From contig MCFE01000179.1 of NCBI GenBank assembly GCA_002104905.1, positions 62,001 to 126,000 of the forward strand: a DNA stretch of 64,000 bases, in the 5' to 3' direction. Positions 397 through 41,479 of this stretch are shown piece by piece. Position 1 is the stretch's first letter. Every line of letters starts with the position of its first letter. Both the position numbers and the translations under genes were made by a program. The DNA comes from Basidiobolus meristosporus CBS 931.73 (taxonomy: Eukaryota; Fungi; Basidiobolomycota). A model generated the notes under the pieces. It was not told the DNA's origin. It saw only the letters and a list, made by a program, of their open reading frames with translations, and did no database searches.

Positions 397-744
397 TGCT
401 GTAAAAGTATATAATTCCACCTAGATATTCACCTAACTTGGTCACTTAGATCATTACCTTCCAATCCTAGAGAGTACTGGCCATATTCCTGATTGGGATT
501 TACTTAGAATATTTTTACCAATATACCAGGCACCCAGAACATGAAAATTCTCAAAGTTGTCCAAACAGCCCAAACTTTGTACACATGTTCTTGGAACCTT
601 TCTTAACCTAATCTACATGTTTGTTATGCCAAGACCATGTAAAATAAAAGTACTACTTTTACATTCAATATATCATTAGATGAAAACTACATAATCTACT
701 TGTTCTCCCAAATTCCTACCAATATCTCCAACACTCTTACAGCA
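397..744 (+). repeat. 5' LTR of copia copy 1
   Basis: Starts TGCTGTAAAA, ends CTTACAGCA, aligns to 4724-5075, followed directly by the PBS. Confidence 0.93.
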
Positions 745-755
745 GGTTATGAGCC
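745..755 (+). promoter_or_regulatory. Primer-binding site, half-tRNA(iMet) type
   Basis: GGTTATGAGCC directly after the LTR; the same motif is at 19469 and 44072. Matches the Ty5/Drosophila copia internal-tRNAiMet PBS (established knowledge). Confidence 0.85.
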
Positions 756-779
756 TCAAGCTGTCACTCTCTGCAGTTT

Positions 780-3700
780 CTACTACTACTATTACTAGAA
801 TTTCTCCTCTGCTGAAAAGTTGGATGGATCTAACTACCAAGTGTGGAAGGTGAAGATGAAGATGCTGATGCAAGAAAGAGGCCTTTGGGATATTATCATG
901 GGAGAAGAATGCACTACCAAAAACATGGGAGAGGAAGCCTTAAAGCACCAGAAGAAAGTACAAAGTGCCTTTCACTGCATTTGCCTTGATGTTAATGCCA
1001 AATTGCTAATTCAATGCTCAAGAGCAAAAACAGTAAAGAATGCCTGGAAGGCATTAGAAGACACCTATCAATCATGTTCAGCTACTAAGAAAGTGTATTT
1101 GAGACAAAAATACTTTACTTCAAAGATGCTGCCAGGAGAAGAAATGAAAAATCTAATTAACAGAATTACCCTGCTGGTAGATGAGATGGAGTATGTTGGC
1201 GTACTAACTACTCATGAAGATGTGATAGTAGCCATCCTGAATAGCCTGACAGACAAGTTTCAAGGCCTTGTATCAGCCCCAAAGTCCAGAACTGAAGAAT
1301 TGACCTTAATTTATGTAAGTGGAAGGCTCCTGGATGAAGAATTATGAAAATCAAGCACCAATAAGAAGGAAGAAGAGAATGCTTTAATCAGCAATGATAA
1401 CCAACAAAGGAGGGACCCAAGACCCTACAAAGGCAACAGCAATCTGTTTTGTAGTTACTGCAAAAGGAAAGGACACACATCAGACCAGTGTCTTAAAAAG
1501 AAAGAAAGTTCGCAGAAAAAGCCTGAACATATAAATGCTGCAACAACTGAAGATAGACTATTCATATTTGCACTAAATATGACCACAAACAAGGATACTC
1601 AGATGTGGTATATTGACTTTGGAGCATCTCAACACTTTACACACCAAAATGAACATTTTACCAAATATCAAGAAATTCCAATTCCAATGGTTTTCATGAG
1701 TGGCAATAGAATACTTGATGCAGTGGGAGAAGGAACTTGCCAAGTAAACCTAAGAGGCAGTGACAGAAGCCATAGACTGGCCTTTAAAGAAGTACTCTCT
1801 GTAGCAGAAATAGCCAAGAACCTACTAGCTGTAAGCAAGGCTGAAGCAGAAGGATACAGTTTCAGCTTTGACAATTCTGGATAAAAGATCACTGATCATA
1901 TAGTGCCCATATTGCTTTGTGTACCAGAGATGGGAATCTATACAAGTTGACTTATATCTCATCATATTGAGAAGCCAATATAGTAACTTAAATGAAGAAA
2001 CACCAATGCTTTGGCACAGGAGATTTGAGCACGTCAATTTTGATTACTTGCACAAAATGATCAAAGATCAGCTAATTTCTGGAGTAAAAATTGATCCCAC
2101 AGATAATTTGGAGCACTATGAAGCCTGCATATATGGAAAACAAGCCAGACAACTGCTCAAGAGCTCTGGGTTAATCAAACTAAGAAAAATTAGATCCAAT
2201 TCACTCAGATCTGTGTGGACATAGGCAAAATTTATCCTTGGGTGGGATGAAGCTTATTATCACTTTTATTGATGATTATACAAGAAACATGTGGGTTCAC
2301 TTCATGGAGAAAAAGGAAAATGCTCTGTCTAAGTTTGAGGAGCTCAAAGCCATGGTGGAGAGAGAAACTGGTGAAAAAATCAAGAAAATACACTCTGACA
2401 ATAGTGGAAAATATACCTCAAAACAATTCATCCAGTTCTGGAAAATTCATGGGATAAAGCAAGAAACTACCATACCATACTCCCTACAGCAAAATGGTGT
2501 AGCAGAATGTGCTAACAGATCAATTATAAATATGGCAAGTTCAATGATTCATGATCAAAAATTGTCCTACAATTTTGGGCAGAATCAGTTGCCACAGCTG
2601 TATACCTTAAAAATAGGAGTTATAGCAGAATCCTTTGTGATTCTACTCCATTTGAAGCATGATATAGGTACAGACCAAGTGCAGAACATCTCACAATATT
2701 TGGGTGTACATCATATGCCAAGAGACTGCCTGGAAATCAGTCAAAATTTGAGCCACAAAGTGTAAGATGTATACTTTTGGGCTACTGCAATGAGATTAAG
2801 GCATAAAAACTGTAGAATACCAAGGCAAAGAAGCTGATCAAGTCAAGGGATGTGTTTTATGATGAAAATTCAAAAACTTGCACAAAAAATGACATCAGAA
2901 GATGACAAAAATTTGATCTCAAGTCCACCAATTGTCAGGAATGAATCAGAGCAAAACAATGAGACTTTTTTCACTCCAGAGGACTCTACAACCATGGTTC
3001 AGCCTGAAGCAGTGCTCAGGGAAATTCCAGAAGTGGTTGTTCCAGTATCAAAGCCGGGAGATCCAATTGGACATGAAATAGCCCAAATTACTAAATCAAT
3101 GAGGGTACAAACTTAGCCTATGCCTATTCAGTCCATATTGATGAGCCCAAGACTGTAAAAGAGGCCCTAAATAGCCCTCAGACAAAGTTTTGGAGATCTG
3201 CAACAACTGAGGAATATCAGGCCGTGATGGAAGATCAAACTTGGGACTTGGTCAAATTACCAATCAACTAAAAATCAATTAGATGCAGATGGGTCTTTAA
3301 GACAAAGTGCAAGGCTGATGCTATAGTTAAAAGATACAAAGCAAGACTTGTGGCCAAAGGATACTCTCAAACAAAAGGGCTTGACTATACTGAGACCTTT
3401 GCACTGGTAGCCAAGTTTAATTCCATTAGATTAATATTGGCTATTGCAGCCAAATATAAGTTTTTTACTCATCAAATGGATGTAAAAGCTGCATTTCTGA
3501 ATGAAGAACTTGATAAGGATATGTATATGGACCAGCCTGATGGATTTGCTGACCAAGATAACCCCAATCTGGTCTGCAAGCTCAAAAAGTCTCTATATGG
3601 TATCAAACAATTACCAAGTGCCTGGAATTACAAGATAGATTCTGGTAGGAATCTTTGAGTTTCAAAAGAACTAATGCTGACTATAGTATATACTATAAGC

Positions 3701-4704
3701 CAGATAGAGCAAATTCAGTTCTAATAGCTCTATAATTGGATGATCTTACTATAGCAACCAATAACCTAAAAACATTAGAAGAGACTAAATCCACCCTATC
3801 TAAAGAGTTCAAGATGTCCAATCTAGGCAAACTCAGTTACTACTTAAGGATTAAGTTCTCCATAGACAGAAGTACCCACACTATCACCCTAAGTCAGTCC
3901 AAGTATGTTAACAATATACTAAAAAAGTACCAAATGGAAGACTGTAAACCAGCAGCTACCCCAATGGAGACCAACCTTGACTTGGTCAAAACTCAACAAA
4001 CACAAGAGAGCTTGGTGCCACCTGAAAGCCCTGACTTTTCTTATCAATCTATGGTTAGCAGTCTGATGTATATCATGCTTGTAACACATCCAGATATCTC
4101 ATATTCAGTGGGAGTTGTCAGCCAATATAATCAGAACTATGGATCTGATCATATTGCAGCAGCCAAGCAGATTTTTAAATACCTAGAAGGAACTGCTTAT
4201 AAATGCTTAAGATACACTTATAAGGACTCAGAACAGGCTTTTGTGGGATTCTCTGATGCTGATTGGGGACAAAATTTGGAAGACAGAAGATCCACTGCAG
4301 GATACACCTTACTTAACAGTAAAGAAGCAATTTCATGGAATTCAAGTAAGCAACCAATTGTAAAACTTTCTACCACAGAGGCAAAGTATATGGCAGCCTG
4401 TGAAGCTCCATAAGAAGCAATGTGGCTAAGAAAGCTTTTTACAGATTAAGGCCTATGTCAAAAAATGCCTATTACTATATTCCAAGAAAATCAAGGATGT
4501 ATACAAATAGGTAGAAACCCAACTTTTCATGCCAGAACTAAGCACATAGATAGTAAACATCATCTCATACATGAAGCTATAGGGAATAACTTAGTTAGCT
4601 TAGTTTACTCTCCTTCAGATAAAATGATTGCAGATATATTTACTAGACCATTAGCTAGAGACAAGTTTGAATATCTTAGGTCAAAATTAGGACTAGTAGT
4701 ATGA
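780..4704 (+). pseudogene. copia gag-pol pseudogene (many stops and frameshifts)
   Basis: Gag ORF 820-1347; CCHC knuckle CSYCKRKGHTSDQC near 1450; protease WYIDFGASQHF; GAG-pre-integrase LWHRRFEH; integrase TFIDDY, HSDNSGKY, QNGVAECANR; RT QMDVKAAFLN; RNase H FSDADW and KHID. Confidence 0.95.
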
Positions 4705-4723
4705 ACATTTAGCTAAGTGGAAG

Positions 4724-5075
4724 TGTTGTAAAAAATTTGAAATTCTACCAAAATATTCACCTAACTTGGTCACTTAGATCATTACCTTCAAATCCTAGAG
4801 AATACTGACCAAATTCCTTGTCAGTATTTACCTCAAACTTTTTCACCAAAATATCAGGTACCCAGAGCATTAAAATTCTTAAAGTTGTCCAAGCAGCCCC
4901 ACACTTTGCACACATGCTCTTGAGTCCTTTCTTAACCTATTAAGCATGGCTTTTTATGCCAAGACCATGTAAAAGTATAATTACTACTTTTACATTCAAT
5001 ATATCAATAAGTGAAAACCACATAATCTACTTGTTCTCCCAAATCACTTCCAATATCTCCAAGACTTGGACAACA
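4724..5075 (+). repeat. 3' LTR of copia copy 1
   Basis: TGTTGTAAAA...GGACAACA, preceded by PPT, followed by TSD AACAT. Confidence 0.93.
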
Positions 5076-5665
5076 AACATATGGCTACCAATGCTTCCGG
5101 TGCACTTTAGGTAGAAGTTGCTTCTGAGGGGCACTTGAATAGACACATATTCAGTTCATCTAGTCCTTGCATTTATAACATTGCATTTGCATACAAATAC
5201 TGATGGGAGGGTGCAAAATATAATATGGGTAGAAGATACTCTCAAATATCTTAGCAATTTATTCTAATTTCTCCAGTATCTTAAAGGACTCATTCAGCTT
5301 GAAATGCCCCCTGTACAACTTGGTCATTAGTATACTTATATTGTTGAAGAGCACATAAAATGCTCCAAGTGGAAAGCTTTTGCTGCAATAGATTTCCACT
5401 ATCTCAAGTATCTCTAGCTTTAACTTAATGTTGTAATATAGCCAATAGCCTATAGCATGCCAGCTTTGCAGCAAATGCATGCTGACTTCTGTATGTCTCT
5501 CTGTGGGAAGATGATATTCTTATTATAATTGTGTAGATGAAAATAATGTGTGTGAGTTATGGAGTAAATCCACAGGATCTTGCAAATTTTGCAGCAGTAT
5601 TGTCCATTGTGCCCAGAAAAGCTGGCCATCCTACTAACAGCTGGATATCTACAGTACAGAAACTA

Positions 5666-7474: not shown

Positions 7475-8400
7475 CAATACAATGCTATGAAGTATTACTT
7501 TCTCCTAAGAGTGGATATAATCCAGTTTGGTCATCATGATCCTGCAATAAGGCTATTATGATGCCAGCAGATTGGAACTATTCTCCCTGCACATGATCTT
7601 ACAACAGGAATGTGACAATATTTTGCTGCATTTGCTGCCTAATGAAGTTGCAAGCTTTGCAGTGTGTTAGTAGTTATTTGCCAAGTGTTGCATACCTGCC
7701 ACAATTGACATACTACTATGACCTCAACTCTACAGCTTTACAGTGTCCTACTGCAAAGTTGCTATATATCAAGTATTGCTGGTAACATTTATATGTTGAA
7801 ACATATGCTCTGATGCAACCTCTTTTCCTTGAGTGCCTCCTGAATATCTGCAAAGAACTTTTCAATGTTTAGCCAATTAATTTGCTCACCCTGCTGAGCT
7901 CTAGTACTCCTTTCAGGTGAGCTCTGGCTCTTGTTTATGTGAAATCTGTATAGAATGGTGTAGAAGTTGGCTTGTGACCAAAAAAACCCCAGCATACTTT
8001 GGAAACATTGTCCTAATGCAAATTAGTTGCTTTTTGCGTCCAACCCAACCATGCATAATGTCCCTCAAAACCTATACATTGATGTTTCTTAGCTTCTTAA
8101 TGCCAATGGCATGGGAGTCTCCATATACACATCTGTCCTTGTTATTTTTGTACTGTTTGTGGCTGGCCTGCATGTGTCAACTATTCACATCCATGAAGGA
8201 CCTGAAGGTTATATTCATGATGCACTTAGGATATAGTAGTGCCTGTGACTTGACTTGTCCTCCTATCTTCCCACACATCTGCAAAATAGGAAACTCCCAA
8301 ATGGTGAAGCAAGGCCAAATCTTCTCTACACACCAAGCAAAATGAAATATAGAATGGATACAATAGTGGCAGGGATCTGCACATTGTGGTGGGGTAATTA
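7475..8400 (-). mobile_element. Family A transposase C-terminal fragment
   Basis: ORF piece WSQANFYTILYRFHINKSQ aligns to 23900-24193; nucleotide match to 23.9-24.6 kb. Confidence 0.75.
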
Positions 8401-8799
8401 TGCCTCACACAGGCCAGTTTATTCATATAGCTATAATGATGCACTTTTACATATTTTATCTTATCAGTATTATCCCATTATTCTTTGCCCTAATTATTGG
8501 TATTACCCCCATATCATCTTTACCCTAATTGGTTACCAGTATTAGTTATCCCAAATGTCTTTCATATTCATGATCACCACATGTATCAACATTAGGCAAG
8601 TACCAACATTGCATTGGGGTCATAATGACACTCACTGACAGATATGCCCATTTGGTGGTAATGGAAAGTATTCCATTACTAAAATATCTCTAAACCAATA
8701 TTGCACTCATTTCTTTACTTTGCTTTTTGCTATTGTAACTCACAAGTGCAAGATCAACTTTGAAGGACAAATGCTCCAGACCCTGACAAGCAGTCCACC

Positions 8800-8985
8800 A
8801 AAGTAGATAATCATCTCCATGATCCCAATGCCGTTCAAGTCTTAGTTGATGATGTACATGTTGCCTACGTTTCTTGCAAAGATGCACCCAAACTTAGATC
8901 TATTGGCTTTGACAATAAACTTTGTACTTGTTTAGAAGCTTACTACCATAGTGCCAAATTTATACTTGAAGATATATTCTACTAA
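8800..8985 (+). pseudogene. 5'-truncated HIRAN-domain-like gene fragment (LTR cargo)
   Basis: Frame reads KVDNHLHDPNAVQVLVDDVHVAYVSCKDAPKLRSIGF...IFY*. Matches the HIRAN signature (N..DPNAV.V....+GY+.R..A..L). Reversing CpG decay gives VSREDAPKL. Confidence 0.6.
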
Positions 8986-9157
8986 CAACTTTTATTTCTA
9001 TCCTCTCTTTACACCCCATGTATATCTCTTCTTTGATTGTTGAACCCTACCCCCTGCCTTTTAAAAAATATCCCACTAAACTATCCATATCCATCCAATT
9101 CTTATCTCCATCCAATTAAATTGGGTACACCCTCATCCACCCCTTCATATATTGAAC

Positions 9158-9346
9158 ATGAGTAAAGAATCCATTGTCAACAAATACTTCAATTTTTTAA
9201 CTCTCTACCAACACCAATATGGTCAACAACTCATTGTTCCTATGCAAGTTGGTAGCTTCTACAAAATTTACGGTGTTCACAACAATATCAAAAAACTTGG
9301 TAGCCCAGCCAATATCTCTGAGCTCCTGAATATCATCCTAACAAAA
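9158..9346 (+). pseudogene. 3'-truncated MutS mismatch-recognition domain I fragment, MutS7 (giant virus)-like (LTR cargo)
   Basis: MSKESIVNKYFNFLTLYQHQYGQQLIVPMQVGSFYKIYGVHNNIKKLGSPANISELLNIILTK. Reversing CpG decay gives VDEY...QVGSFYEIYG..NDIEKLG..ADISELLNI, containing the MutS F-X-E motif. Cut off exactly where the LTR backbone resumes. Confidence 0.7.
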
Positions 9347-9734
9347 ACAGTGACTTTGGTTGCAAGTCACTCTCAAACCAGCCAATTAAATCATGTGAAA
9401 TATTCAAAGGAGCTGTGCCTATGTCCAATCCACTCCACTGCAAAAGTTTAGCTTTGTATCACATGTATTGCTTGTGCAACCACCCCAAAACTTTGATCCT
9501 TCAGAATTTTTGTATATATGACTTCCCCAGCTGAAAAATCAAGAGAGAGCCTCTCTTTCCAGAATCTCCACACTACAATTACAAGTTTAGAGGTTATAAG
9601 ACTTCCCCTGCATCACTTACACTGTTGAGTATTCTGACTTTGATTAGTACTACATCATTAATGAGACTGCAAAGCTCACAAAAATCCAATCTAGGTTCAA
9701 CAAGAAACTACCACTTTTCTGTTGGAAAAGTTCC

Positions 9735-9900
9735 CTTTAAGAAGCCCCTTTACTCTAAAGATACCCCTTTAGGCACCACTTTAGTGTAAAGTCCACTTTA
9801 GAGACCACTACAAGAAGTCCCTTTACTCTAAAATCACCCCTTTAGGTCTAAAGACCCCTCTAGAGACTTCTACAACACACCCCTTTAGGTTAAAGGGGAG
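9735..9900. repeat. Degenerate tandem/inverted CCCCTTTA / TAAAGGGG motif array in family C LTR U3
   Basis: Repeated cccttta, ctaaag and ccacttta units; counterpart with a different unit number at ~12985-13220. Confidence 0.7.
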
Positions 9901-10689
9901 TTCAGAATTTCCATATTGGGAAATATTTTCTCAGCAAGGAAAGTGATGTCCAAATAAGGAAAAATCTCTATAAAAGTAAATAAGTCCATTAGTCAATAGA
10001 TGGTCAGAGCACTGCTGCAGAAGTGATAAATACTGTCTATAGTATATTTTGAGCCTAAGATTGAGGAAATCAGTGAAAGCTATATCTTCTATTGGTATAT
10101 CAAGCTCTCAATAAACTATTTTGGTATTAGCATACTGGAAGTTGTTGTATATTGTTGATTAGCCTCTACATTGTAAAACAAGCTCCAAACTAATTTTAAT
10201 GCATCACAACAATTCTCATATTTTTTTCTTCCCCATACTCTACTGCCATTATTTTAGTTTTATCTCAATTTGTGTTATCTAATCATTATTTACCCATAAG
10301 CTGGCCAAGCATGGTACCTGCTTCTGTATTGCATAAGTTATCCCTCACTTTATGTAAGATTACTGATTGTATGTGCTTCCATATTAGGCAAGTAATTGCA
10401 TTAGGACCTGTGATATATAACCTATTTGTGTCACCATCCCTACCACTGTCATTCCATATACTGTATCCCTATGTTACACAGATTTCAGAATCCCAATTCT
10501 TGATTGGTTTGATGCATTGTGCCTCTTTGAACCTTTTCACATCTATTTAGAACATTCTTAGCCCATTCTGATGTCATTGATATTTCTACTGATCTCTGGA
10601 ACCTTCTGGAAAATTATGATAAGTAATCACTTAGCCAGTGAGAAAAGTATATATGGGAGGCAATCCCTTAGCAGTAAATCATCATCCCT

Positions 10690-13600
10690 TTTATCAATAT
10701 ACCAGCTTATTGATTAGTATGATTACTGCTACCTGCTGCTGCCTGAACTTTCAATTCCAGACCACAGTACACTCCTAGGAGACCATGCTGACAGCTAACT
10801 GGCCTAGGAAGCACTACTTGTGAGGAATTCCCACAGTATGTGCTCCCTATGAGAAATAATTGTGATGATCCCATCAAAAGGCCTCCACAATTTCTAAGTC
10901 CAGTGACCAAGAGGTATTGATCACATCAGGATGCCACACAAAGACCATTGGAAAGTAATTGACCCCTGAATTTCACAAAAAACTTGGTCAAAATTTTTCA
11001 TCACAACAATACAAAAGTGGCTTTTGAATTGTTTGCTGCCAATTTTTACATTTCTGATCTCAGACACTCTATTGCCTCCTATGCTTGTGTGTATTGATTG
11101 GCCATTGCCTCTTTTTCACACTTCTTACTTCCTGAGTCAACTGTTTCTCTTACATTCCATGCTTACAAATTGATTCACTTACATTGAAATTTTGGTTGCT
11201 CCTCAATTGCCATTTGTATTAACCTATACAAGTCTCTATTCCCTACACTATCATTACGCCTACCTACACACTCAACAAGTAACTCTATTAAAATCCATTA
11301 CTCAATAAGTATTTCAGCTATGAAGCTCTGTTTCTATGACTTTTGCAGGAATCCTGCAACTTCATGCCACTGTGCATTCACTGGTACCTATACATCCAGG
11401 TCTTCAGCCAGCACTGCAAGGTCTAGCACCTCAACTGCCAGTCTTTGCAATAAATCCTTGCAATGCTCAAATGCATTTTCTTGAACACTGCACTTGACAA
11501 AGTGCTGCAGCATCTTTGTGTGCCTAATAAGATTCCAAGGTTTCACTTGATGCATTGTAGTAACATATGAGTACTTGAAGCTGTTTTGTTGTTGTTCAGT
11601 AGAATATCCACTTGGTCCACAATTGAGGATGTGAAGGCTGTGTTAGACAAATTGCTTTTCTCTGCAAACTCATTTACATCATTGGAGTGTTGCCCAACTG
11701 ATTGCACTTCCAGCTCTTGTGAATACAGCTGTTTTCTTGTTGGTAATTTTTCTTGGCAATGATGGCATTCAGTTGGTTCTGGGTTTGCAGTGTTAATTGG
11801 CAAGAGCTGCAGCTTTTCCTCATGCTTCCCTGTCTTTGGCTTGGGAAAACTTCTATCTCTTTGCCTTTACCTTATGATTGCTGGGTCTTTCACTGCTACT
11901 CATATTAAGCTACTTTCTCTCCTTGATAAATGCTGCTCTGATGCATTTGTTTTGGCCAGCTTGTCTCTTGCTGGCTCCCTACAGACAACCCGACACTTTT
12001 TTCCTGCTTGTTTTGTGCTCTCAGCCAAAGTTGTGATGGGCTCCTGAGGTAGCCGCAGGTTTGACCACTGCCAGGTCCTTCACTGGTACTTTGACTGAGT
12101 GCTTCCTGAGTGGAAAAACACTTTTTCCTTGATAATGTAGTGCTGGTGTATCTGGGTCTGCCTGCTTGTCCCTTATTGGCACTCTTCCAGCTACCTGATG
12201 TCTCCATGACACTTGTTTGGCACTTTTAGCCATGCTTGTAACAGGATTTTGAGGAAGCCACTGGTTTTTAGCCATTGCACTCTTGTTGTTCTGCATTTGA
12301 TAGTTCCTGCCATTCTTGAGATACTTTCTTAGGATACCAATGCTGGCCTATAATCTGTTTGCTTGTTTGAGTCTAGCATAATGCTCTTAGGGCAAGTTAA
12401 GTGCATTCTGCTTGGCCTTGAGTTCCTGATGGTCCTATGGTATGCAGGTCTTCAGGTGCTGTTATGCTAGACTTCTAATAGGCTCTTGAATATTAGCCCA
12501 CTCTACATCATTGCAGAAAATGGCTTCACAGATCTTCTATTACTTTTGACTCTTGGGCTTGGGTATAAACACAACATTTTCTACCTCCCATGCTGTGATA
12601 GATTTTTGTATGGGCTTTATTTTTGGGGACTGTTGTTGTGCTTCAGTGACTGTGCAGTGTTCTGTTGTGTTACATTATGATTAGTTTGGGGCTTGTTCTA
12701 TGATGTAGAGGCTAATCAACAATGAACAATAGCTTCCAGTATGCTAATACTAAAATAGTTTATTGGGAGACTGATTTACCAATGGAAGATATAACTTTCA
12801 CTAATATCCTCAATCTTAGGCTCAAATATACTGTAGGCAGTGCTTCTCACTTGTACAGTAGTGTTCTGACCTTTGGTCAACTGTTGGGCCTATGTACTTT
12901 TATAGTAACTTTTCCTTACTCAAAAGTCACTTTCCCTTCTAAGAGAATATTTCACAATATGGAAACTCTGAACTCCTCTTTGCCATAAAGGGGTGTGGGG
13001 TAGAAGTCTCAAGCAGTCTTTAGACCTTAAGGGGTGACTAAAGGGGTGTCTTTAGAGGAGAGGGGCTACTGACAGTTGTCTCTTAAGTGAACTTTACACT
13101 AAAGAGGTGTCTAAAGGGGCTTCTTTAGAGTAAAGAAGCTTCTTAAAGAAGTCTCTAGAGGGGTCTTTAGACCAAAGGGATTGTCTTGGAGTGAAGGGAG
13201 CTCTTAGAGGGGACATTGCTGACAGAAAAGTGGTAATTTTCTTGTGGAACTTAGATTGTATTCATGTGAGATTTGCAGTCTCTTTACTGATGTAGTACCA
13301 ATCAGAGTCAGAATACTGAGCAGTGCAAGTGATGCAAGGGAAGTCATACAGCCTTTAAACTTGTAACTGTAGTGTGGAGATCCTGGAAAGTGAGGCTCTC
13401 CTTTATGTTTCAGCCAGGGACGTCAAATACATGAAAATTCTCAAGGATCAAAGTTTTTGGGCAATTGCACAAGCAATACATGTGATACAAAGCTAAACTC
13501 TTGCAGTGGAGCAGATTGGACATAGGCACAGATCCATTGAATATTTCATGTGATTTAATTGGCTAGTTTGAGAGTGATATGCAATCAAAGTCACCGTAAT

Positions 13601-15790
13601 AATCCCAGCAACAGAGGCACAGTGGAACTGGTTATTAGACTCTTTTGATGATAACTCCTCAAGTATTGCCTCAAATGGGCTGTAATTTAAAACATGCATT
13701 GGCTACAGAGTGTTCTGCATGACTTTAATACTATCAGGTGGACTACCTGTCCGGATCTTAAGCATTTGTACTTCAAATTTGGAATTTCTGAGCTTTCATT
13801 TGTGTGTTACAATAGCATAAGTAAAACAAAGAAATGAGTGCAATATTGGTTTAGAGATTTTGTAGTAATGGAATGCTTTCCATTACCACAGCTCCCCTGC
13901 TGTTAAATTGGAAAATGGCTCAATTCTTGGCTGTGGCACTGAGCTACTTGCATTCCTTCTTTGCAGCAAAGATTCTAATTTGCCTACCCGGGATGTTGAT
14001 TGCCCTAAACATATTATCTGCTCTGCCTGTTTCTATACTATTGCCTGATTTGCATTGCTGTTAGTAGTGGGGTTTGGTTGGTAACCAGACAAGTTTGCTT
14101 TATTTATAATGCCAACTATGGCAGGTGATCATTGAATCTTACATTTATATAGGTGCAATGTCTCAAATACAAGGCTGGCTTAAATTCACATCAGTATTGA
14201 TAAAATAATGATATAATATCATTAAGCTGATGAATGTCAAGCCTTTTGTCCCATGGACAAGACTACTTTGATTCAATGCTATAAGAGAAGAGAAAAAGAC
14301 CATGTGGCTATTGTAGCAAGCCTCTCTGCAATCAAGCACACAGATACCACATGACCACCATTTTGGCACGTAAGTCTTATTTGATCATTCATCAGTCACT
14401 ACCGTACCAACAATATTTTGCTGGCCAGCTGATACTTCTATAATGGCAACTGGCTATACTTGTTACCTTGTGCAAGCTGAGTCATGTGAGTTTGTGACAC
14501 CTTTAGGCTTACCCCAGCCTTATAAGTATGGAGCACCAAATGATAGCTCTGAAAAAGAAGGCTCACTGATGGAATCCGAGACTATCTCTCCTGACAAGTG
14601 CACCCTGCATGAGCCTGACAAAATACCAATATGCAATGTGACAAGACTTGTGGAAAAAATGCCAAGGAGACCATATGGAGTCATGTGAGCCCACTAATCC
14701 ATCTACTGGCTACTGATGTGATCTTGCGGCTAGAGAAGTGGTGAATCTCCACTAATATCAGTAATGGGGACTTTGAGGATCTACCACTACTTCTTGCCAA
14801 AATCATGCCAGAATGCAACTTATCAAGTGCATGGTACAATTAGACAATCATCACGTGGCTGGCAGAACATGACCCAGTGACTCTCTGGATACCAACATGT
14901 GCTGATAGTTACTAAGTATTCACATCAGGAAATGCTACTGTTGCAAGGTGTCCAACTTGTCAGAGATTCACCACCATTTGGGGAAAACCTCATTCATACT
15001 CCAGCTATATTCTGGTAATATCCCATCAAAAGTAGCTTATGCAGTCCAACAAATATTGTGAAGCTATAAAGTACTGTACTCATTATCAATCAAGTGCAAA
15101 TATATTCAATATATCCAATGGCACACATTACAAACAGCTAAGAAGCAAGCGCTACCTTGAAGATATGTATGACCTTGCTTTTGCCTTGGCACTTGAAGAT
15201 TTTAATTATATAAGTACTCTACCTGCAAATCCTGCTGGCCACCAATTATGATTTTCTAGTATCTGCTGCCTATATTATGGTATCAGAGCCAAAATCTGAT
15301 GGTATAAAAATGTATATGTTACGAGCAGTACAAGGTATATGGCAACTGTGCAAGTTTCACACTAAATAACTGTAAAGTTAAGGTGATAGAAGTATATTAA
15401 TTACAGCAGGTGTGTGTGTTTGTAGAGGTTAATAATTGTGAGGCCATAGTTTTTGGTTTGAACTATATGCAGAATACCCATGTAGTGGTGGGTAATCAAA
15501 TAACAAGGATATATTCTACAGTGGAATATATGAGTTGTGCAAGGAGAGGCTGAAAAGGGAAATCCTTTTTGGCTAATTGGTATGGTAATAATATACAGAA
15601 CTAGCTGTAGGGTGCAATACTGCCATAATAATGTCAACAGAGGCTTGCAATGAGGTCCTCAAAACACTGTCAGGTTTTTTGCCATATAAGGCAACTGGAT
15701 ATACTGGCAGCTTAGATCCGCTCAATTAGTTGTACAGAGCATTAACACTGCAACAATGCCCTGCAAGCCTCAGCACAACACTATGCAAAC
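10690..15790. mobile_element. Family A copy: ORF2 on minus (10.7-14.1 kb, split by solo LTR C2) and internally deleted transposase on plus (ATG 14158 to ~15.8 kb)
   Basis: Aligns to the copies at 16-18.8, 23.6-27.7 and 38.5-41.2 kb. Transposase motifs LAFALALEDF and LMILxxICC correspond to Transposase_21 LAL..DGF...PLIL. Confidence 0.7.
12663..13890 (-). mobile_element. Large solo LTR (family C, copy 2) with a different 140-bp cargo (13597-13736)
   Basis: TGTGGTAATGG...CACAACA on minus; 4-bp TSD GTTC/GCTC. Removing it restores family A ORF2 sequence (gactgtgcagtGTTCccctgctg; compare 17817-17840). Confidence 0.85.
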
Positions 15791-15899: not shown

Positions 15900-18790
15900 G
15901 TGATGGTCTCCCAAGTTTGGTCTTTTACAGTCAAACATACTTTTTTGTCTTTGTAACTATTGACCACAGCACACTCTTATAAAGTCCCTGCTGGTGGGGT
16001 TTGTAGTTGCCTTGACTTTGGAAACTTTAGTACATTGTGATCTCAAAGGATGCTGAATTCAGAACATACTACTATTAGGATGCCAACTAAGTTGGGGATT
16101 GTAGCTCAATAGTTTTCCCTTCATAAGCTTGTGGCTTTATTCCCCTTCACCTCATCATATGATCCCATCAAAATGCCATCACAAAGTTAAAGTCCGGTGA
16201 CTAAGAGGTACTGATCCCATCAGGACATCATAGAGTGACTGTTGGAAAATAATTGCACCCTAGATTTCACCAAAACCTTATTCAACACTTTTCAACACAA
16301 CAATACATAAGTGGGTTTTGATTGGTTCCCTGCCAACTCACGCACTTTTGGATCCCAGACACTTTATCACCTCCTATGTTTGTGTGCATTGATTGGCTTT
16401 TGCCTCTTTTTCACATTCCTTACTTCCTGACTCAACTGATTTTCTTACTTTTCATGCATACAAACTGATTTATTTCTGTTGACACCTCAGTTGTACCTCA
16501 GTTGCTAGTTGTATTGACCTGTACAAGTCCCTATTCCTACACTAACATGAAGTCCAATCCCATAATCAACAAGTAACTTCATTTGAATCCACCACTCAGA
16601 AAGTATTTCTGCTGTAGAGCTATGATTCCATGACTTTGGCGGGAACCCAACAGCTTTATGGCATTGTTCATGCACTGGCTTGCATATGTCCCGGTCTTCA
16701 GCCAACACTGCAAGGTCTAGCTCCTCATCTGGCAGTCTTTGCAATAAGTCCTTGCAAAATTCAAGTGCATTTTTGTAAGCACTGCTCTTGCAGGAGTGCT
16801 GCAACCTCTTGATGTGCCTATTGATGTTCCCAAACTTTACTGTAGGCATTGTGATGGTGATATGAGTTTTTGATGTTGTAGGCCTGTTTATCAGTGGCAT
16901 CTCTGCTATGTCAGTAATGGAGGACATGGAGGCTGCAGTGGACAAATTGCCTTTTTCTGTAAACTCATCTACCTTTCTGGAGTGTAGCTCAACTGGCTGC
17001 ACTTTCAACTCCCGTGAAAACAGCTGTTTCCTTATTAGTAACTCTTCTTTTATATGATGGAATTCAGTCTGTTCCATGCTTATGGTGTGAATTGGCAAGA
17101 ACTGCAGTTTTCTTGGCATGCTCCGCTGTCTCAGGCTTGGGTAGACATTTTTCCTTTTACCTTTTTCTCTAACACTGCCAGGTCTTTCATTGCTACTTTG
17201 CCTGAGTGAATCTTGTAATGAACTACATTTTTTATCACTGCCAGGTTCTTGATTGCTACCTTGACTGAGTGCTTCTTGAATGGGACTATGCATTTCCTTG
17301 ATAGATGTTGTGCTGGTGCATCTATGCCTGCCTGCTTATCTTTAATTGGCACTCTTGCAGCTACCTGACATCTCTTTATTGCTTTTCTGGAGCTTTCAGC
17401 CCTGCTTGTAACAGGCTCTTAAGGAAGCTGCTGGTTTTTTGCTATGTCACCTATGTTCTTCTGCCTTTCATAGTTTCTGCTATTCTTAAGATACTTACTT
17501 ATTATACCAATGCTGGCCCAAAATCTGTTTGCCCATATGAATCCAGGATAACGTGGATGGAAAAAGTCATGTGCATTCTGCTTGGCCTTGAGTTCCTGAT
17601 GGTCCCATGGTATGCCAGCCTTAAGGTGATGGCATGTTGGACTTCTGATAGCCTCTTGAATATTAGCGCACTCTTCATTGTTGCACTCATCAGCTTCACA
17701 TATCTTCAATGGATTTTGATTATTTGGCTTTGGTATAAACACCACATTGTCTCCCTCCCATACTGCAATAGGTTTTTCTGTGGCTTTATCTTTGGGCACT
17801 GTTGTTGTGCTTCAAAGACTGTACGGAGTTCCCCTGCTATTACATTGGAAAATGGCTCAATTCTTGGTTGTGACATTGAGCCACTTGAGTTCCTTCATTG
17901 CAGCAGAGATACTGCTTTCTCTACCAGGGATATGATTGCTCCACAGGCCTTATCTGCTCATCCTGTTTCTGGAGTATTTCCTAATTTCTTTGGGCCATTG
18001 CATCTATTATATCAGCCACTGCACCTAGTTGCTTAGTCAATGCTTTGGTTTGAGCTGACAACACACTTGCTAATATTGGTGGTTGTGATGCTATGATGGC
18101 CACTAGCTGGTCTTCCACTGAGTGTACCACATTTACTACACTCTCATCTTCCTGAGCCTAACAGTCAGCTTGCAGCTCTGCAGAGGTTCTCAATGACTAC
18201 TTGACTGAGAGCGTGAGGAGTCCGCATTATTATCTTCAATGGGCACACTGTCCGCAGGGCCTTATATGGATGTAGCCCTGCTTATTGCACTGAATGTCAT
18301 TGAAAGCTGTTGTCCAACCATTCTTCTGCTGCCGTCAGCAATGGGGTTTGGTTGGGAACCAGACACTATGCTTAATTTTTTGGCAGAATACATATCAAAG
18401 TGGGTCAGACCAAAGGGGAAATACTGTTAGATATACATTGTATGTGGCACCACAGCTTTGTTTATAATGCTTACGATGGCTGGTCATCCTTGAACCTTAC
18501 ATTCATATAGGTGCAATGTCTCAAGTACAAGACTGTTTAATATTCACAGGAGTATTGTCCAAAAAGGGATATAATAGCATTAGTTTGTTGATGGTCAAAC
18601 TGTTAGCCTGATGGACAAGTCTACTTTGATTCAATACTGTAAGAGAAGAGGAAAAGACCATGTGGCTATTGTAGTCAGCCTCTCAATCATGAGGTACACA
18701 GACAGCATAGGATGTATCACAATGATTTTGTTGAGTGTTTTGCCACACAAGATATATTTGACCATATATCTGTCACTACTGTACTAGCCC
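15900..18790. mobile_element. Family A copy: relatively intact ORF2 (minus, ATG ~18320) and truncated transposase start (plus, ATG 18516)
   Basis: ORFs 16505-17293 and 17419-17799 on minus; conserved ATGGTTGGACAACAGC start shared with 26775. Confidence 0.7.
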
Positions 18791-19099: not shown

Positions 19100-22000
19100 T
19101 GCTGAAATATTGGACTATTAGGTATCATTCAGCAGCTAAAAATTTACTTAACAATTCTAGACTAGTCTTAGTCACTGTACAACTCATTTACTGCCTTAAC
19201 TTTGCCACTTTCTCCAGATATATGATCTTATGATTATTCCCCTATAGTCAGGATCAAATTAGCACTATTACCAAACATTATGTACTAACCATGAAACTGT
19301 TACAGAATGCTCCTGAATATTGAGAAACCCTCCCTACTTAGTGTTGCAGCTGTATTACTTCTACAAAGGTATAAATACTGAGCTTCTTTATGAATAAACA
19401 ACAGTTCAACTATTATTACTATTTCTTGATAAGTTTGTTATATCCAAATCACTTCTTAAATTGCAACCGGTTATGAGCCCCAATTGCCTTAATCTATTCT
19501 AAAGATGACTTCTACCAGCAAAAAGAGCAATAGCAACTTCTTCCCTGTAAAGGAGAGGTTTGATGGGAAGAACTACAGACATTGGAGAATCAAGACACAG
19601 ATCCACCTTGAGGGAACAAAGCTTTGGAACAGAGTAACAGAAAAGGAACTTGAGCCCAAAGGAACAGCAGAAGATGTGGAGAAGTTTCAAGAGAAGGAGA
19701 GAAAGGCCTTCAATGCCATATGCAACAATGTGCAAGACTCCTTTATTGGACAAATCCATGCCTCAAATACTGCCAAAGCAGCATGAGAATCCTTAGAGAA
19801 GATCTTTAGAGCAAAGTCAGTATCAAGCAAGCTTTATTCAAAACAAAAGTTCTTCAGCATGAGGAAGAAGCCAGATGATGACATGCTACAACTCATTACC
19901 TAAATGGAGACACTTGCAGAAGAACTTTACAGTATTAATGCTGGTGTAGATGATGAAGAAAAGATACTCTGTCTGCTTAGCAGCCTTCCAGACAAGTATG
20001 AGCCACTTGTACTTTCTTTTGAAAGCAGAGAAGACAACTTGACTTTAGACTATGTCAAAGGAAGACTTCTCCATGAAGAACTCAGATGTTATTATCAAGC
20101 AGAGAAAATCAAAGATAATGCTTTATTCAGTTCAGAAAGGCACACAGAAAAGAAGGGAAAGCAACAAAACCAAAGAAAACCTGGCTGCTGTAACCACTGT
20201 AAAAAGCCAGGACACTGGGCAAGAGAATGCAAGACAAAACAAGCAGATGAAAAACAGAAACTAGAGCAGGCAAACCATATAACTACTGATGAACAGTTAT
20301 TTGTAACTGTACAAGAGAGTGCAAGTAACCAAAGTAATGAATGGTATATTGACTCTGGAGCATCACAGCATATTTGTGGTACAAAGGATTGGTTCAGCAA
20401 CTCAAAGACTATTCCCATAAGGAAGGCTTATCTGGGAGATAACTCTGCATTGGAAGCTACTGCCAGTGGGTCTATACAACTAAATATGAGTACTAACTCA
20501 GGGGCAACAACAGCAAAACTGACTGACGTACTCTATGTACCTGGAAGAGCTAAGAACCTACTCTCACTCAGTAAAGTAACTACTCAGGGACTGAAATTTG
20601 TTTTTACTAAGCTGAGCTGCTCAATATTGAGTGAAAATGGACAAAAATTAGCTTTGGGAATCAGAAATCACTATATATACAAGTTACAATGCAAGATCAT
20701 TGTACCTGATCATGTCAACATTGCGGAAACTGATGAAACCAACTGGGAGATGTGGCACAGGAGGCTAGGACACATAGGGGAACAGAAAATGAGCCAATTG
20801 GTGAAAAATCAACTAGTCTTGGGCCCAAGTTACACAATTCCAATCAAATTGAATGTCTGTAAGAGATGTTCATATGACAAACAAGCTAGGCAACATTTCA
20901 AGAGTTCAGGAGGCAGCAATACCGCTGAAACACTGTCAAGAACATGACAGAAATACAAACTGGGTGTGAATTGAAGGTGCTACAAAGTGAAAATGGAGGG
21001 GAATACTGCTCAAAAGAGTTTACAAAATACTGCTCATCTACTGGTATACTTCAACAGACCACTGTTCCTCATACTCCACAGCAAAATGGAGTAGCAGAAT
21101 GTGCAAATAGAATAATAGTAGACATGGGAAGATCTATGCTGCATGACAAGGGAATGGACTGCAAGTTTTGGGCTGAATCTGTTGCTACCGCTGTATACAT
21201 CAAGAACAGATGCCCAACAACAGCACTACGTGTTTCTATGCTCTTTGAAGCATATACAGGCAAATGACCAGATCTCCAGCACCTCAAGATCTTTGGCAGT
21301 TATGTTTTTTATCACATCCCTGACAAAAAACGCTCAAAGTTGGAGTCAAAGAGTAGGAAAGAGATCTCTCTTGGGTATTGTGATGATACTAAAGGGTATA
21401 GAGTGTATGATGGCAAAATTCAGAAGCTGATCAAGAGCAGGGATGTTGTATTTGAGGAGAACTCAGATCAGAAAGCCACAGAAATCATTGGCCAGCTGCC
21501 TAATGATGCAATCAACACTAATGAAGAAGATACGTACCAAATCCAGCCAGATACAGAAGATACTTCTACCAGTTTTAGATCAGAACATATTATCCCAGCT
21601 AGGAGATCTACCAGAATAAGAAATGCCCCTGGCTCCTGGTTGCAGACATCCAATGATCATGAAGAAGCTTATCTTTCCTTATGTGCCAAACCTCAGAATC
21701 TGGAACAGGCAATGCAAAGTCCAGATGCTACTAAGAGGCAACAAGCCATGCAGGAGGAGTACCAATCACTGATCAAGGCAAAAACGTGGGAACCGGTAGA
21801 TTTACCATATGGGAGAAAGCCAATAGGATGTAGATGGGTCTACAAGATCAAGATAACCTCAAATGGTGCCATTGATCAGTACAAGGCTAGATTGGTGGCT
21901 AAAGGCTATTCCCAGATCCAGCAACTAGACTTTAAGGAAACATTTGCTCGGGTTGCCAAGTTCAACTCTATTAGTACAGTTCTAGCCCTGTCAGCTGTAC

Positions 22001-23633
22001 ACAGTCTAGATCTACACCAAATGGATGTCAAAACCGCCATTCTAAATGGGGATTTGCAAGGAACTATATATGTGGAGCAACCAGAAGGCTTTACCAATCC
22101 AAAAGGCCCCCATAAGGTGCGCAAACTTAGAAAACTGCTGTATGGGCTTAAGCAGGCACCTAGAGCATGGTATAACAAGACTGACACATATCTAGAGGAA
22201 ATTGGGTTCTCTTGTAGCACTGCAGATCACAGCATATATGTGAAACAGCTCAAAAAGGGTGTGATCATCCTAGTTCTCTATGTGGATGACCAAATTATAG
22301 CCACAAGTGACCAAGAGGCACTTAAACAGACAAAATCCGATCTCTTCAGCAAGTTTGAGTTGAAAGATCTTGGAAAATTGAGCTATTTTCTTGGAATTGA
22401 GGTCAAATTTGACATACCTAAGCAGAAAATTGTGCTGAATCAGTCTCAGTACATCAGGGACATTCTTAGATGCTTCAAAATGGAAAATTGCAAACCTGCA
22501 GCAACCCCTATGGACAATAACCTGAAATTTAGCAAATCTCAGCCAGTTTTAGATGAAAACAGCTCAAATATGGACCAAAACGTTCCCTATCAATCATTGG
22601 TTGGTAGCCTAATGTACTTCATGGTGTCTACACGTCCAGATATTGCAGTTGCAGTTGGAATATTCAGTTAATTCATGCAGAATTATGGATAAGATGAAAT
22701 TGCAGCAGTTAAGTGGATTTTCAGATATCTACAAGGTACAATAAATATGGTACTGGAATACTCTGAGTAACTAATAGGCAAAAATTTGATGGTTATAGTG
22801 ATTCAGATTGGGGTAGGGATCTGATTGACAGATGCTCTACCACAGGCTATGTATTTCTTTATGCTGGTGCAGCTATTACTTGGAATTGCAAGAAACAACC
22901 AACTGTGGCCTTATCTACAACTGAAGCCAAATATATGACTGCATGTCAAGCAACTAAGGAGGCTCTATGGCTACAAGAATTATTCAAAGACTTAGGTTTT
23001 AATTGAGATGAACCAACATGTATTTACAAGGATAATCAAAGTTGTTCTTCATTAGCTAGAAATCCTACTAATCATGCCAGAACTAAGTACATTGATATAC
23101 AGCATCACTTTGTGAGGGAAGCTGTAGAGAATAACTTAGTGGAGTTAGTTTACTGCCCAACTGACAAAACGGTGGCAGACATATTGACAAAACCACTAGC
23201 TAGGCCACAGTTTGAGATCCTTAGAGAGAAATTGGGATTAAGAAATTATTTAGTTGAGGGGGAGTGTTGAAATATTGGACTATTATGTATCATTTAGCAG
23301 CTAAAAATTTACTTAACAATTCTAGACTAGTCTTAGTCACTGTACAACTCATTTACTGCCTTAACTTTGCCACTTTCTCCAGATATATGATCTTATGACT
23401 ATTCCCCTATAGTCAGGATCAAATTAGCACTATTACCAAACATTATGTACCAACCATGAAACTGTTACAGAATGCTCCTGAATATTGAGAAACCCTCCCT
23501 ACTTAGTGTTGCAGCTGTATTACTTCTACAAAGGTATAAATACTGAGCTTCTTTATGAATAAACAACAGTTCAACTATTATCACTATTTCTTGATAAGTT
23601 TGTTATATCCAAATCACTTCTTAAATTGCAACA
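19100..23633 (+). mobile_element. Ty1/copia LTR retrotransposon (family 2), young insertion with defective gag-pol
   Basis: LTRs 19100-19468 and 23265-23633 (369 bp, 7 mismatches counted). TSD ATTTT/ATTTC; PBS GGTTATGAGCCC at 19469; PPT AGTTGAGGGGGAG. Empty site matches 15.6-15.7 kb. Confidence 0.97.
19505..23253 (+). pseudogene. copia gag-pol pseudogene with in-frame stops and an integrase N-terminal deletion
   Basis: FDGKNYRHW; CCHC CNHCKKPGHWAREC; protease WYIDSGASQH; WHRRLGH; integrase SENGGEY and QNGVAECANR, but the HSD..GP/FIDD block is missing near 20940; RT QMDVKTAILNG and YVDD; RNase H. Confidence 0.95.
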
Positions 23634-23899
23634 ATTTCGACAGCCTCACATTGAGACTCTGATGGTATTATATTGGTAATATGACAGCCTACAGCTGGTT
23701 CTGTATAATGCTACTGTACCAATTAACCAAATGGTATTTCCTTTTCTACCTTCCCTTGTGCAATTCATAAATTCCACTGTAAAATCACCCCTCTTTATTT
23801 GCTTACACACTACTACCTTGGGTATTCCACATATAGTTTGAGTTCAAATACAATGGCCTCCTGCTTACTAACCTCTACAAATGCGCACACCAGCTATAA

Positions 23900-26579: not shown

Positions 26580-26774
26580 TGCACCTACATGAATGTAAGA
26601 TTCAATGATGACCTGCCATAGTAAGCATTTTAAATAATGTTGTGGCACCACATACACTTGTATTTGCAACACCTCTTCCACTTTGGTTAGACTCACTTTC
26701 ATATATAGGCTGACAAAAATAAAGCAAAGTCATCTGGTTCCCAACCAAACCCCACCGCCAATGGCAACAGTAAA

Positions 26775-27689
26775 ATGGTTGGACAACAGCTTACTTTGAC
26801 ATTCAGTGCAACAAGCAGGGTTACATCAAGAAAAGGCCCTGTGGACAGTGTGCCAATTGAAGGTAATAAGGCAGACTCCTCAGGCTCTCAGCCAAGTAGG
26901 CATTTGAGAATCTCTGAAGAGCCACAAGCTGACTTTTCTGCTCAGGCAGATGAGAATGTGGCAAATGCGGTACCCTCAGGTGAAGACCTGCAAATGGCTG
27001 TTATAACATCACCACCACAAATATTAGCAAGTATGTTATCATCTCATACCAAAGCATTTGTGAAGCAATTAGGTGCAGTGGTTGATAGGATTAAAGCAAT
27101 GCCCCAGAGAAATTAGCAAATAGTCCAGAAACAGGATGAGTGGATAATACTTGTAGAGCAATCAATATCTCAGGTAGAGAAAGCAGTGTCTTTGCTGCAA
27201 AGAAGGAACTCAAGTGGCTCAATGTTGCAACCAAGAATTGAGCCATTTCCCAATGTAACAGCAGAGAAGCACCATACTGGCTTTGAAGCACAACAACAGT
27301 GCCCAAAAATAAAGCCCACAGAAAAGCCTATCACAGCATTGCAAGGAGACAATGTGGTGTTTATACTAAAGCCTAAAAATCAAAAGACATTGCAGATTTG
27401 TGCAGCCAATGAGTGTAATAATAAAGAATTGTGTATGAGCAGATTTTATCAAGGAAAATACCTAGTTCATTACACAAAGCACTCAGACAAAATAGCAGTG
27501 AAAGACCTAGCAGTGATGAAGGAAAAGGTAAAGGGAAAAATGTCCACCCAAGTCTGAGACAGGGAAGCTTGCAAAAAAGCTGTAGTTCTTGCCAATTCAA
27601 ACCACAAGCCTGGAACAGACTGAATGCCATCATTGGCAAGAAGAATTACCAACAAGAAAACAGATCAAAGTACCTCTTAGTCATGGGAC
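26775..27689 (+). pseudogene. Family A ORF2 (unknown function), divergent from the transposase, internally deleted
   Basis: MVGQQLTLTFS... starts 195 bp from the transposase ATG; homologous to all other ORF2 copies. Confidence 0.6.
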
Positions 27690-33046: not shown

Positions 33047-33975
33047 TCATCAAGTATGTTGTCAGCTCATACCAAAGCATTAATGAGCCAATTAGGTGCA
33101 GTGGCTGACAGGACAGATACAATGGCCCAGAAAATTCAGGGATTAGTCTGAACACAGGATGAGTGGATCAAAGGTGTAGAGCTATCAATACACCCGGTAA
33201 AGAAAGCAGTATCTTTTCTACAAGAAATGAACTCAAGTAGCTCAGTGTCACATCTAAGAATTGGGCCATTTCTCAATGCCACTGCAGAGGAACGCCACAC
33301 AGTCCTTGAAGCATGTCAATAGTGCCCAAAGATATAGTACACAGAAAAACCTATCAAAGCATGGGAGGGAGAAAATGTCTGTTAATAATACAGCCCACAA
33401 ATCAAAAAAGACACTGATGATATGTGAATCCTTTGGGTGAAATAATGAAGAATGGACTAATATTCAAGATGCTGTTAGAAGTCCAGCATGCCAACACCTT
33501 AGGGCCGGCATACTATGGTATAATTGGGAACTCAAGGCCAAGCAGAACATGCTTGACTTCTTCCATGAGCATTATACTGAACTCAAACAAGCAAACAGAT
33601 TTTGGGGCAGTGTTGGCATGCTAAGAAAGGATCTCAAGAGTAGCAGACACTATCAAAGGCATAAGAACCAGGAAACAGTTGCTGAAAACCAGTAGTATCC
33701 TGAAGAGCCAGTTATAAGCAGAGCCAAAAGCTCAAAACAAGCATCAAAGAGATATCAGGTAGCTGGAAGAGAGCCTGGAAGGACAAAGCAGCCAGAAACA
33801 TATGTACTAGTATTACATTCATCAAGGAAAAAGTGTAGGCCCACTCAAGAAGTACTCAGTCAAAGGAATAGTGAAGGACCTGACCATGATAAGCACCAGC
33901 AGTCTCTAAGTCCATAAGTAATTTTTGCAGCCATATAGCCTTCTAAGTTGCTTGACAAGCAGCCATGTATTCAGC
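33047..33975 (+). mobile_element. Family A ORF2 fragment
   Basis: Aligns to 27.0-27.5 kb and 39.35-40.2 kb. Confidence 0.7.
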
Positions 33976-41200: not shown

Positions 41201-41479
41201 CTTAATGTTATATGTTTGCCATATTGCTCTGGAGGCACCACCAAGTTACTTCTAATTATGATGTCTGCAGGAATTGACCAGTTGAGTCCACTCAGATTGG
41301 TGTAGACTGCATTAAGATAGCTGGGATGCCATGGAAATCCTGCTAAAGGTCCTTGTAAATGCTTTCAAGCTTATTTTTCTGTTTGGCAGCAACAGCAGCA
41401 AAACACCATCACAGTTTCTTCAAAAGGTTGTGGGGAAGGTTAATAATTCTTACATGATCAGTAATGTGGCTAAGCAAGC

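Follow-up and report, generated by a model that had tools for sequence, protein, structure and literature searches.

A giant-virus gene fragment within a solo-LTR-like repeat of Basidiobolus meristosporus, probably copied there during DNA-break repair

A nest of decayed transposons in the genome of Basidiobolus meristosporus CBS 931.73 contains a dead, single-copy piece of giant-virus DNA, which replaces about 135 bp of a solo-LTR-like repeat and was probably copied there once during the repair of a DNA break. The piece, here called the cargo, lies in a stretch of 64,000 nucleotides, the window, and joins the end of a HIRAN-domain gene to the start of a mutS7 gene. The source virus is already known: a 2020 study described endogenous fundsalphaviruses in Basidiobolus (PMC7017919). 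The original prediction, that a piece of a giant virus had been transduced by an LTR retrotransposon, was a real observation and named the origin rightly from sequence alone; it is the route of arrival that we read differently. The HIRAN end with its stop, the 172-bp spacer and the ATG with 63 codons were found at the positions where the prediction had placed them, and the features of the region are as follows.

8650–8653, + strand: likely left copy of the C1 target-site duplication, 4 bp, three of four letters equal to the right copy
8654–8803, + strand: 5' part of C1, solo-LTR-like, 87% identical to C2
8802–8985, + strand: end of a viral HIRAN-domain gene, 60 codons and stop, 55 of 60 residues identical to residues 163–222 of ORX78499.1
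8986–9157, + strand: viral intergenic spacer, 172 bp, matched by LTR-free contigs in sequencing runs X1/X2 and X4/X5
9158–9347, + strand: start of a viral mutS7, ATG and 63 codons covering part of domain I; the peptide shares 53 of 63 residues with ORX78500.1 (residues 1–63)
9347–10211, + strand: 3' part of C1, solo-LTR-like, 84% identical to C2, carrying a TATA-like box (9969) and an AATAAA (10110) and closing with ACA
10212–10215, + strand: likely right copy of the C1 target-site duplication, 4 bp
12663–13890, − strand: sister repeat C2, 1228 bp, TGT...ACA, without cargo, sitting within another repeat

The borders of the foreign stretch were taken from contigs, 8802/8803 on the left and 9347 on the right, which gives about 545 bp, and the mutS frame reads on for 34 codons into the LTR before a stop at 9449–9451. 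C1 aligns with C2 at 8655–8799 and 9347–10211 (C2 13889–12663, inverted), and between these parts there is no match. At the cargo site C2 has some 135–139 bp (about 13732–13598) that are absent from C1, and these are unrelated to the cargo (local score 17.0, shuffle mean 17.3). Since C2 keeps what C1 has lost, the cargo is a replacement and no clean insertion. The segment had been described as present in C1 and missing from C2; it is indeed foreign to C2, but it took the place of about 135 bp, and its borders are now refined to 8802–9347.

C1 and C2 are 84–87% alike and mutually inverted, and must therefore be two separate insertions; the same two facts rule out that they are the paired LTRs of one element. 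C2 runs from TGT to ACA, and C1 also ends in ACA, although at its 5' end it departs in the first base from the TG with which C2 begins. Both are flanked by a likely 4-bp target-site duplication matching in three of four letters, and for C2 the empty site in five sister repeats fits the insertion site. In both copies the distance to the 3' end is 242–243 bp for a TATAAA and 102 bp for an AATAAA. None of the six frames of C1 matched a Pfam family, no full gag-pol element flanked by the C1/C2 repeat was found within the 64-kb window, and the Copia elements of the window have LTRs unlike C1 and C2. By these features C1 and C2 have the character of solo LTRs from a family with many copies, and the view of the carrier as an LTR holds up on its termini, the order of TATA and AATAAA, and the lack of a coding domain.

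Neither of the two raw cargo peptides matched a Pfam family at E<=1, and the domain names therefore rest on the intact relatives, which match MutS_I (E 1.5e-10) and HIRAN (E 3.4e-6). The search for these two domains that had been proposed thus gave nothing for the raw peptides and both domains for the intact B. meristosporus proteins. Each peptide had one database match: the MutS piece to ORX78500.1 (921 aa) with 84% identity, and the HIRAN piece to the C-terminus of ORX78499.1 (222 aa) with 92%. In Basidiobolus meristosporus CBS 931.73 these are consecutive proteins, encoded on one contig of 33,329 bp. On a profile of seven environmental relatives the raw MutS peptide scored 67.7 bits, the best of 1000 shuffles reaching 9.8, and a fragment from B. 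ranarum is 67% identical across the same 63 residues. For the HIRAN protein the best score in an Atlas search was 0.83, which is a lead only. A weak hAT match (E 0.072) on the frame reading through from MutS into the LTR was treated as chance. The cargo holds 63 of the 921 mutS7 codons, with neither the ATPase nor the HNH, its F-X-E mismatch-recognition motif is altered, and its HIRAN piece has no start; it would therefore encode nothing useful, and a function is unlikely.

The intact protein ORX78500.1 carries MutS domains I, III and V (Pfam E 1.5e-10, 3.1e-14 and 7.7e-39) and a C-terminal HNH motif with its H-H-N-H residues present, scoring 16.1 bits where the Pfam cut-off is 21.4; its close relative L241 reaches 28.2 bits with the same family. 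This is the composition that defines MutS7, domains I, III and V with a C-terminal HNH (PMC3166940), and the donor shares it, together with the absence of a leader, with the MutS7 of Mimiviridae, epsilonproteobacteria and octocoral mitochondria (PMC3166940, PMC6163669). About 100 residues of domains III/IV that the relatives have (alignment A3, columns about 430–560) are missing from ORX78500.1, and there is a short tandem repeat near residues 145–175. Going by its sequence, the donor gene may itself be decaying or mis-modelled.

The main MutS tree had 44 rows, drawn from about 400 sequences as the best-scoring together with evenly spaced viral, bacterial and environmental ones; fungal MSH1 and octocoral mtMutS are absent from its rows. 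ORX78500.1 falls in a clade of eight (SH-aLRT 100) with five environmental proteins and the IMG/VR contigs L241 and L242, apart from bacterial MutS7, and an earlier 77-row FastTree agrees. The intact donor thus lies inside the MutS7 radiation, of which the window holds 63 codons only, and its nearest viral contigs are a separate clade. In AU tests with 22 of these rows, grouping with bacterial MutS7 was rejected at p-AU 7e-8 and grouping with MutS1 at p-AU 0.017, and the second result keeps the protein apart from MutS1/MSH1, as had been expected, in a set of rows without fungal MSH1. Host MSH1 was rejected as the source, as that lineage lacks an HNH (PMC3166940). The Atlas features of the eight rows shown were 83–100% viral clusters in six cases, most commonly Nucleocytoviricota, and Campylobacterota and eukaryotic in one case each.

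L242 has its mutS7 beside a C-terminal piece of RPB1, PolB, a FEN1-like nuclease, D5 and a dUTPase, and L241 bears an SF2 helicase together with an N-terminal piece of RPB1; both are plainly NCLDV contigs. They were among the matches given by alignment scans of viral contigs, and single-protein scans with P0001 (ORX78500.1) and P0003 gave none. A bacterial-like globin (L242:15624–15980) and a DUF5757 protein (L241:11758–13518) were also observed. The fundsalphavirus gene set comprises D5, an SNF2-like helicase, a split RPB1, RPB2 and RPB5, and in these nearest relatives we see D5, the RPB1 pieces and a helicase. A HIRAN gene adjoining mutS7, which had been expected in a viral contig, did not turn up at E under 0.7 among 6564 ORFs of 311 loci; B. 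meristosporus and the runs X1/X2/X4/X5 alone showed the adjacency.

Gong 2020 lists for B. meristosporus the contig MCFE01000822.1, 33,329 bp, with MutS_III twice, POL and Helicase_C (Suppl. Fig. S2, PMC7017919); the gene row comes from a PDF table in which the layout may be off and the 33,329 bp is exact. The donor contig has this same size, and the donor is therefore the published endogenous fundsalphavirus. The shared size and the published row together show that the HIRAN–mutS7 pair is linked to the family-B DNA polymerase of a fundsalphavirus. A host locus with the same two genes had been named as a finding that would speak against a viral origin. Such a locus is present in the B. meristosporus assembly, yet it bears a viral DNA polymerase and therefore supports that origin instead of refuting it. 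It also places the donor pair on a published endogenous element of this species, in line with the proposed fungus-associated virus with endogenous copies, and the protein matches, the HNH tail, the tree and the PolB of the donor contig all point to a giant virus as the origin of the HIRAN end and the MutS7 start.

The hosts of fundsalphaviruses include both B. meristosporus and B. heterosporus, the contig of equal size has MutS_III next to POL, and retrotransposon sequence surrounds those elements as it does the cargo (PMC7017919). That study differs from ours in that it was a screen for DNA polymerases, with a main text that does not treat MutS and a row for MCFE01000822.1 that carries no HIRAN label; as presented there, the elements are fossils only, and neither a fragment embedded in an LTR nor a form at high depth is described.

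A donor of non-viral kind, either a horizontally transferred bacterial mutS7 (Campylobacterota or Patescibacteria) or a host MSH, is very improbable. Basidiobolus has been reported to acquire bacterial genes (Tabima 2020), and the best score of a bacterial MutS7 against the intact protein is 496 bits, close to the 546 of ordinary viral ones. The closest contigs, however, are viral at 778 and 761 bits, the AU tests rejected both groupings, the donor contig bears a viral PolB (PMC7017919), and solved MutS1/MSH2/3/6 match at E 1e-35 or worse only. The polymerase linkage, the tree and the AU tests in practice refute such a donor. MutS7-type genes were also observed in Patescibacteria MAGs (Magasanikbacteria, Kerfeldbacteria; L161, L163–L166, L169–L171, L177 and others), as a clade sister to the MutS7 of Campylobacterota; the bacterial MutS7 named in PMC3166940 and PMC6163669 are from epsilonproteobacteria alone.

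X1 and X2 are sequencing runs of one sample, in which the unique flanks of the window were matched without differences; this sample may be the very one from which the window derives. Contigs of the repeat family follow C1 to 8803 and then diverge, and LTR-free contigs match from 8802 and up to 9347 and continue beyond these borders as HIRAN or mutS. The overlaps at the cargo ends measure 2 nt and 1 nt, no more than chance would give. The right junction was spanned without differences by one contig in each run, with a depth of 93 in X1 and 90 in X2, the unique flanks lying at 91–105; among the contig pieces listed, none spanned the left junction. At 9305–9326 the depth of 226.9 in X1 is the sum of the junction contig (92.8) and the contigs continuing into mutS (80.8 and 53.3), and in X2 181.7 is the sum of 90.1 and 91.6. 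Nothing is left over in these sums, so a second loaded LTR has no place among the retained contigs, and a single right LTR–cargo junction at single-copy depth was found among the contigs listed for X1/X2. The X1 contigs keep 46% of sampled words, rare and short pieces being dropped, so further copies of the junction could be missed. A chimeric join of LTR and viral DNA made by the assembly can hardly be the explanation: the left junction is uncovered among the contigs listed, but the right one is bridged exactly and at single-copy depth in two runs, and the cargo bears CpG-type changes of its own.

The LTR-free, donor-type contigs in X1/X2 are 90–99% like the cargo and have about genome depth. 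Those nearest to the cargo depart from it at 23 of 547 positions, and the seven X1 pieces listed do so at 60 of 931 in all (about 4–6%). The spacer was matched with 2 differences in 135 bp, and the spacer contig has about three times genome depth, which implies some three or more viral copies. The A-run at the 3' end of the cargo is present in the donor too, which rules out that it is a poly(A) tail, and neither an added poly(A) nor a target-site duplication around the cargo was found.

The source of the cargo is the HIRAN–mutS7 pair of B. meristosporus, of which there are several LTR-free copies in the sample that matches the window, and break repair is its likely route into C1. An LTR already inserted would have been broken and its ends resected, after which a free end would have copied about 545 bp from endogenous (or infecting) viral DNA in the nucleus. 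Rejoining would have left the 2-nt and 1-nt overlaps, and CpG C-to-T erosion within the repeat nest would have followed. Repair is favoured by the cargo running from the stop of one gene through the spacer to the ATG of the next, and by the loss of sequence from the acceptor LTR. The divergence between cargo and donor is below that between C1 and C2 (13–16%), and the cargo retains more CpG; being less decayed than its LTR, it fits a capture after the LTR had been inserted. This timing is soft, as C2 may be of a different subfamily and short family contigs 95–99% like C1 exist. The repair-mediated duplications of Pace et al. 2009 (PMC2671141) are similar in that a transposon is interrupted, the donor lies elsewhere, the acceptor loses sequence, the overlaps are short, and there is no poly(A) or duplication. 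They too were recognised through interrupted transposons, and the marks used there are shared by the cargo, namely one copy, an internal gene boundary, sequence lost from the acceptor and no tail added. They differ in losing 1–15 nt, which the loss of about 135 bp seen here exceeds and which counts against repair, and in that our donor is viral and lies outside the 64-kb window. It also counts against repair that the overlaps do not exceed chance and that the cargo is in sense with the TATA and poly(A) signals of the LTR, an orientation that a template switch needs and repair does not.

An unlikely alternative, and the weightiest one, is that reverse transcriptase left the RNA of the element for a read-through viral RNA packaged with it and then returned, so that the cargo came to lie in U3 of an element that later collapsed into a solo LTR. 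We keep it because the cargo lies in the LTR sense, upstream of the TATA box, and because a single insertion would also leave one copy. A double switch would likewise give a replacement with tiny overlaps, and retrotransposons have been suggested to aid the integration and spread of these viruses (PMC7017919). Against it, an RNA covering two genes and their spacer is required, the one junction copy among the contigs listed means no spread, the cargo is less decayed than its LTR, and the neighbourhood of C1 holds no internal retrotransposon sequence or primer site. As signs of an RNA intermediate, the viral genes have no introns to lose and the cargo crosses a gene boundary, and the sense orientation alone fits. 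LTR retrotransposons capture genes by transduction, as in maize Bs1, and the cargo resembles such cases in being foreign coding DNA in an LTR element in sense orientation. It differs in having no spread, no sign of an RNA intermediate, an intergenic span and no internal element. In a literature search judged by title, no precedent for LTR capture of giant-virus DNA was found. With one junction among the contigs listed, at single-copy depth, the span from stop through spacer to ATG, the replaced LTR sequence and neither poly(A) nor duplication, the transduction by a retrotransposon that was originally proposed is not supported.

It is improbable that a virus inserted at this very site and that the cargo is what deletions or recombination left of it between the halves of two LTRs. 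In favour of this, insertions and deletions are nested here, and two viral polymerase remnants of B. meristosporus lie amid retrotransposon domains (PMC7017919). The LTR halves are, however, collinear with about 135 bp missing and share a likely target-site duplication in three of four letters, and 2203 viral-locus proteins match nothing more in the window save a host phosphatase. We therefore hold to a copy made during break repair, and the cargo itself is most likely junk, the product of a known kind of repair accident that copied a published endogenous virus. If so, viral DNA in Basidiobolus serves as a repair template and is scattered into repeat nests.

The cargo shows CpG decay. The cargo peptides depart from the two intact proteins at 15 residues, 8 of which can be explained by a single CpG-type change, against a background of 35 CpG-type changes among 836 possible non-synonymous ones (p about 5e-8, with no weighting for transition bias). 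At the nucleotide level 7 of 17 differences from the X1 donor-type contigs are CpG-type, among the differences listed, 20 rows being judged informative. The cargo keeps 3 CpG in 543 bp and the LTR part of C1 none in 1016. The restoration of CpG sites that had been proposed is correct for the bulk of the changes, as these eight differences indicate, but three of the restored residues are absent from the intact B. meristosporus proteins, which have the unrestored residues of the window there. CpG methylation of the repeat nest is the presumed cause of the C-to-T erosion of the cargo. CG methylation on transposons is described in Phycomyces, and no publication on 5mC in Basidiobolus was found in the literature search.

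The runs X4 and X5 come from another study, of organism B, and contain the HIRAN–mutS7 pair (window 8805–9262) in contigs with a depth of 4390–5440. Sister variants have a depth of 5–18.5 and the other listed X4 contigs 9.5–28, and the deep contig, with a depth of 4390 in X4 and 5361 in X5, exceeds a 445-bp sister 271-fold and 290-fold, although contig depth is no copy number. Its HIRAN end and its mutS7 start are joined by a spacer core of 131 bp unlike that of the cargo; upstream it continues as HIRAN, and it has no LTR flanks. Of 332 positions compared with the cargo 39 differ, and the deep contig has CpG at sites of TG or CA in the cargo. The unbranched deep contig of 1419 bp implies many near-identical copies. 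This intact form may be a replicating virus, a reading to which we give slightly less than even weight. Other possible sources of the depth are a tandem array, a place on the mitochondrial genome or a plasmid, bias in the library, or DNA of a second organism. The cargo may then be the footprint of a still-replicating, pithovirus-related virus with an HNH-fused MutS7, with endogenous copies as repair templates and a deep, CpG-bearing form in X4/X5; we suggest this tentatively, as falling just short of an even chance. Our literature search, which misses most subscription papers, found no active virus of Basidiobolus, and fundsalphaviruses appeared in it only as fossils. In run X3, which has next to none of the window repeats, more distant HIRAN and mutS7 pieces were observed at 8921–8973 and 9147–9196, in a 490-bp contig of depth 176 and a 3705-bp contig of depth 95, from another relative of the virus.

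The Mycodnaviridae of zoosporic fungi are likewise giant viruses integrated in fungi (PMC13533422). In an Allomyces strain the viral contigs had about 50-fold the coverage of the genome, which was taken as a high titre and a first sign of activity (PMC13533422), and the deep contigs of X4/X5 are a parallel to this. Their authors place the Mycodnaviridae in a different lineage, and the main text treats neither Basidiobolus nor MutS or HIRAN. If the X4/X5 form replicates, a culturable, non-flagellated fungus is host to a live giant virus of a lineage so far seen as fossils only.

Fundsalphaviruses are placed near Pithovirus by their polymerase (PMC7017919), whereas MutS7 is, according to a 2018 review, unique among viruses to Mimiviridae (PMC6163669). 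The donor virus combines such a polymerase with a MutS7, which brings this gene into a pithovirus-related fungal lineage, and MutS7 alone is therefore unsafe as a marker of Mimiviridae.

Window positions 1–48400 are a nest of decayed transposons with CpG at 0.00–0.12 of expectation, which rises sharply to 0.5–0.9 from about 48.5 kb. The host genes at 50041–63973 include a tyrosinase, a dual-specificity phosphatase, a myotubularin and a FAD-binding oxidase, and a membrane protein at 60828–61673 has no Pfam match. These genes are fungal; the best named matches of the myotubularin, within the length limits of the search, are 53–59% hits from Mucoromycota, Glomeromycota and Zoopagomycota, with none at genus level. 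A multi-copy repeat family, 70–81% alike, occupies 10845–12660, 16159–18784, 26310–27663, 33043–33892 and 36224–41210; it has a degenerate ORF and internal repeats of 205–207 bp, and one of its copies hosts C2. Decayed frames at 23885–26511 (− strand), 7690–8372 and 14100–15304 share a cysteine cluster resembling that of CACTA/EnSpm transposases, from which they may derive. Copia-type elements, with gag, integrase, RT and RNase H motifs seen in their ORFs, lie at 400–5075, 19100–23630, 30500–33050 and 43720–47830. They have LTR-like repeats of about 340 bp, and the pair at 19100–19467 and 23265–23632 is 98% alike and therefore recent.
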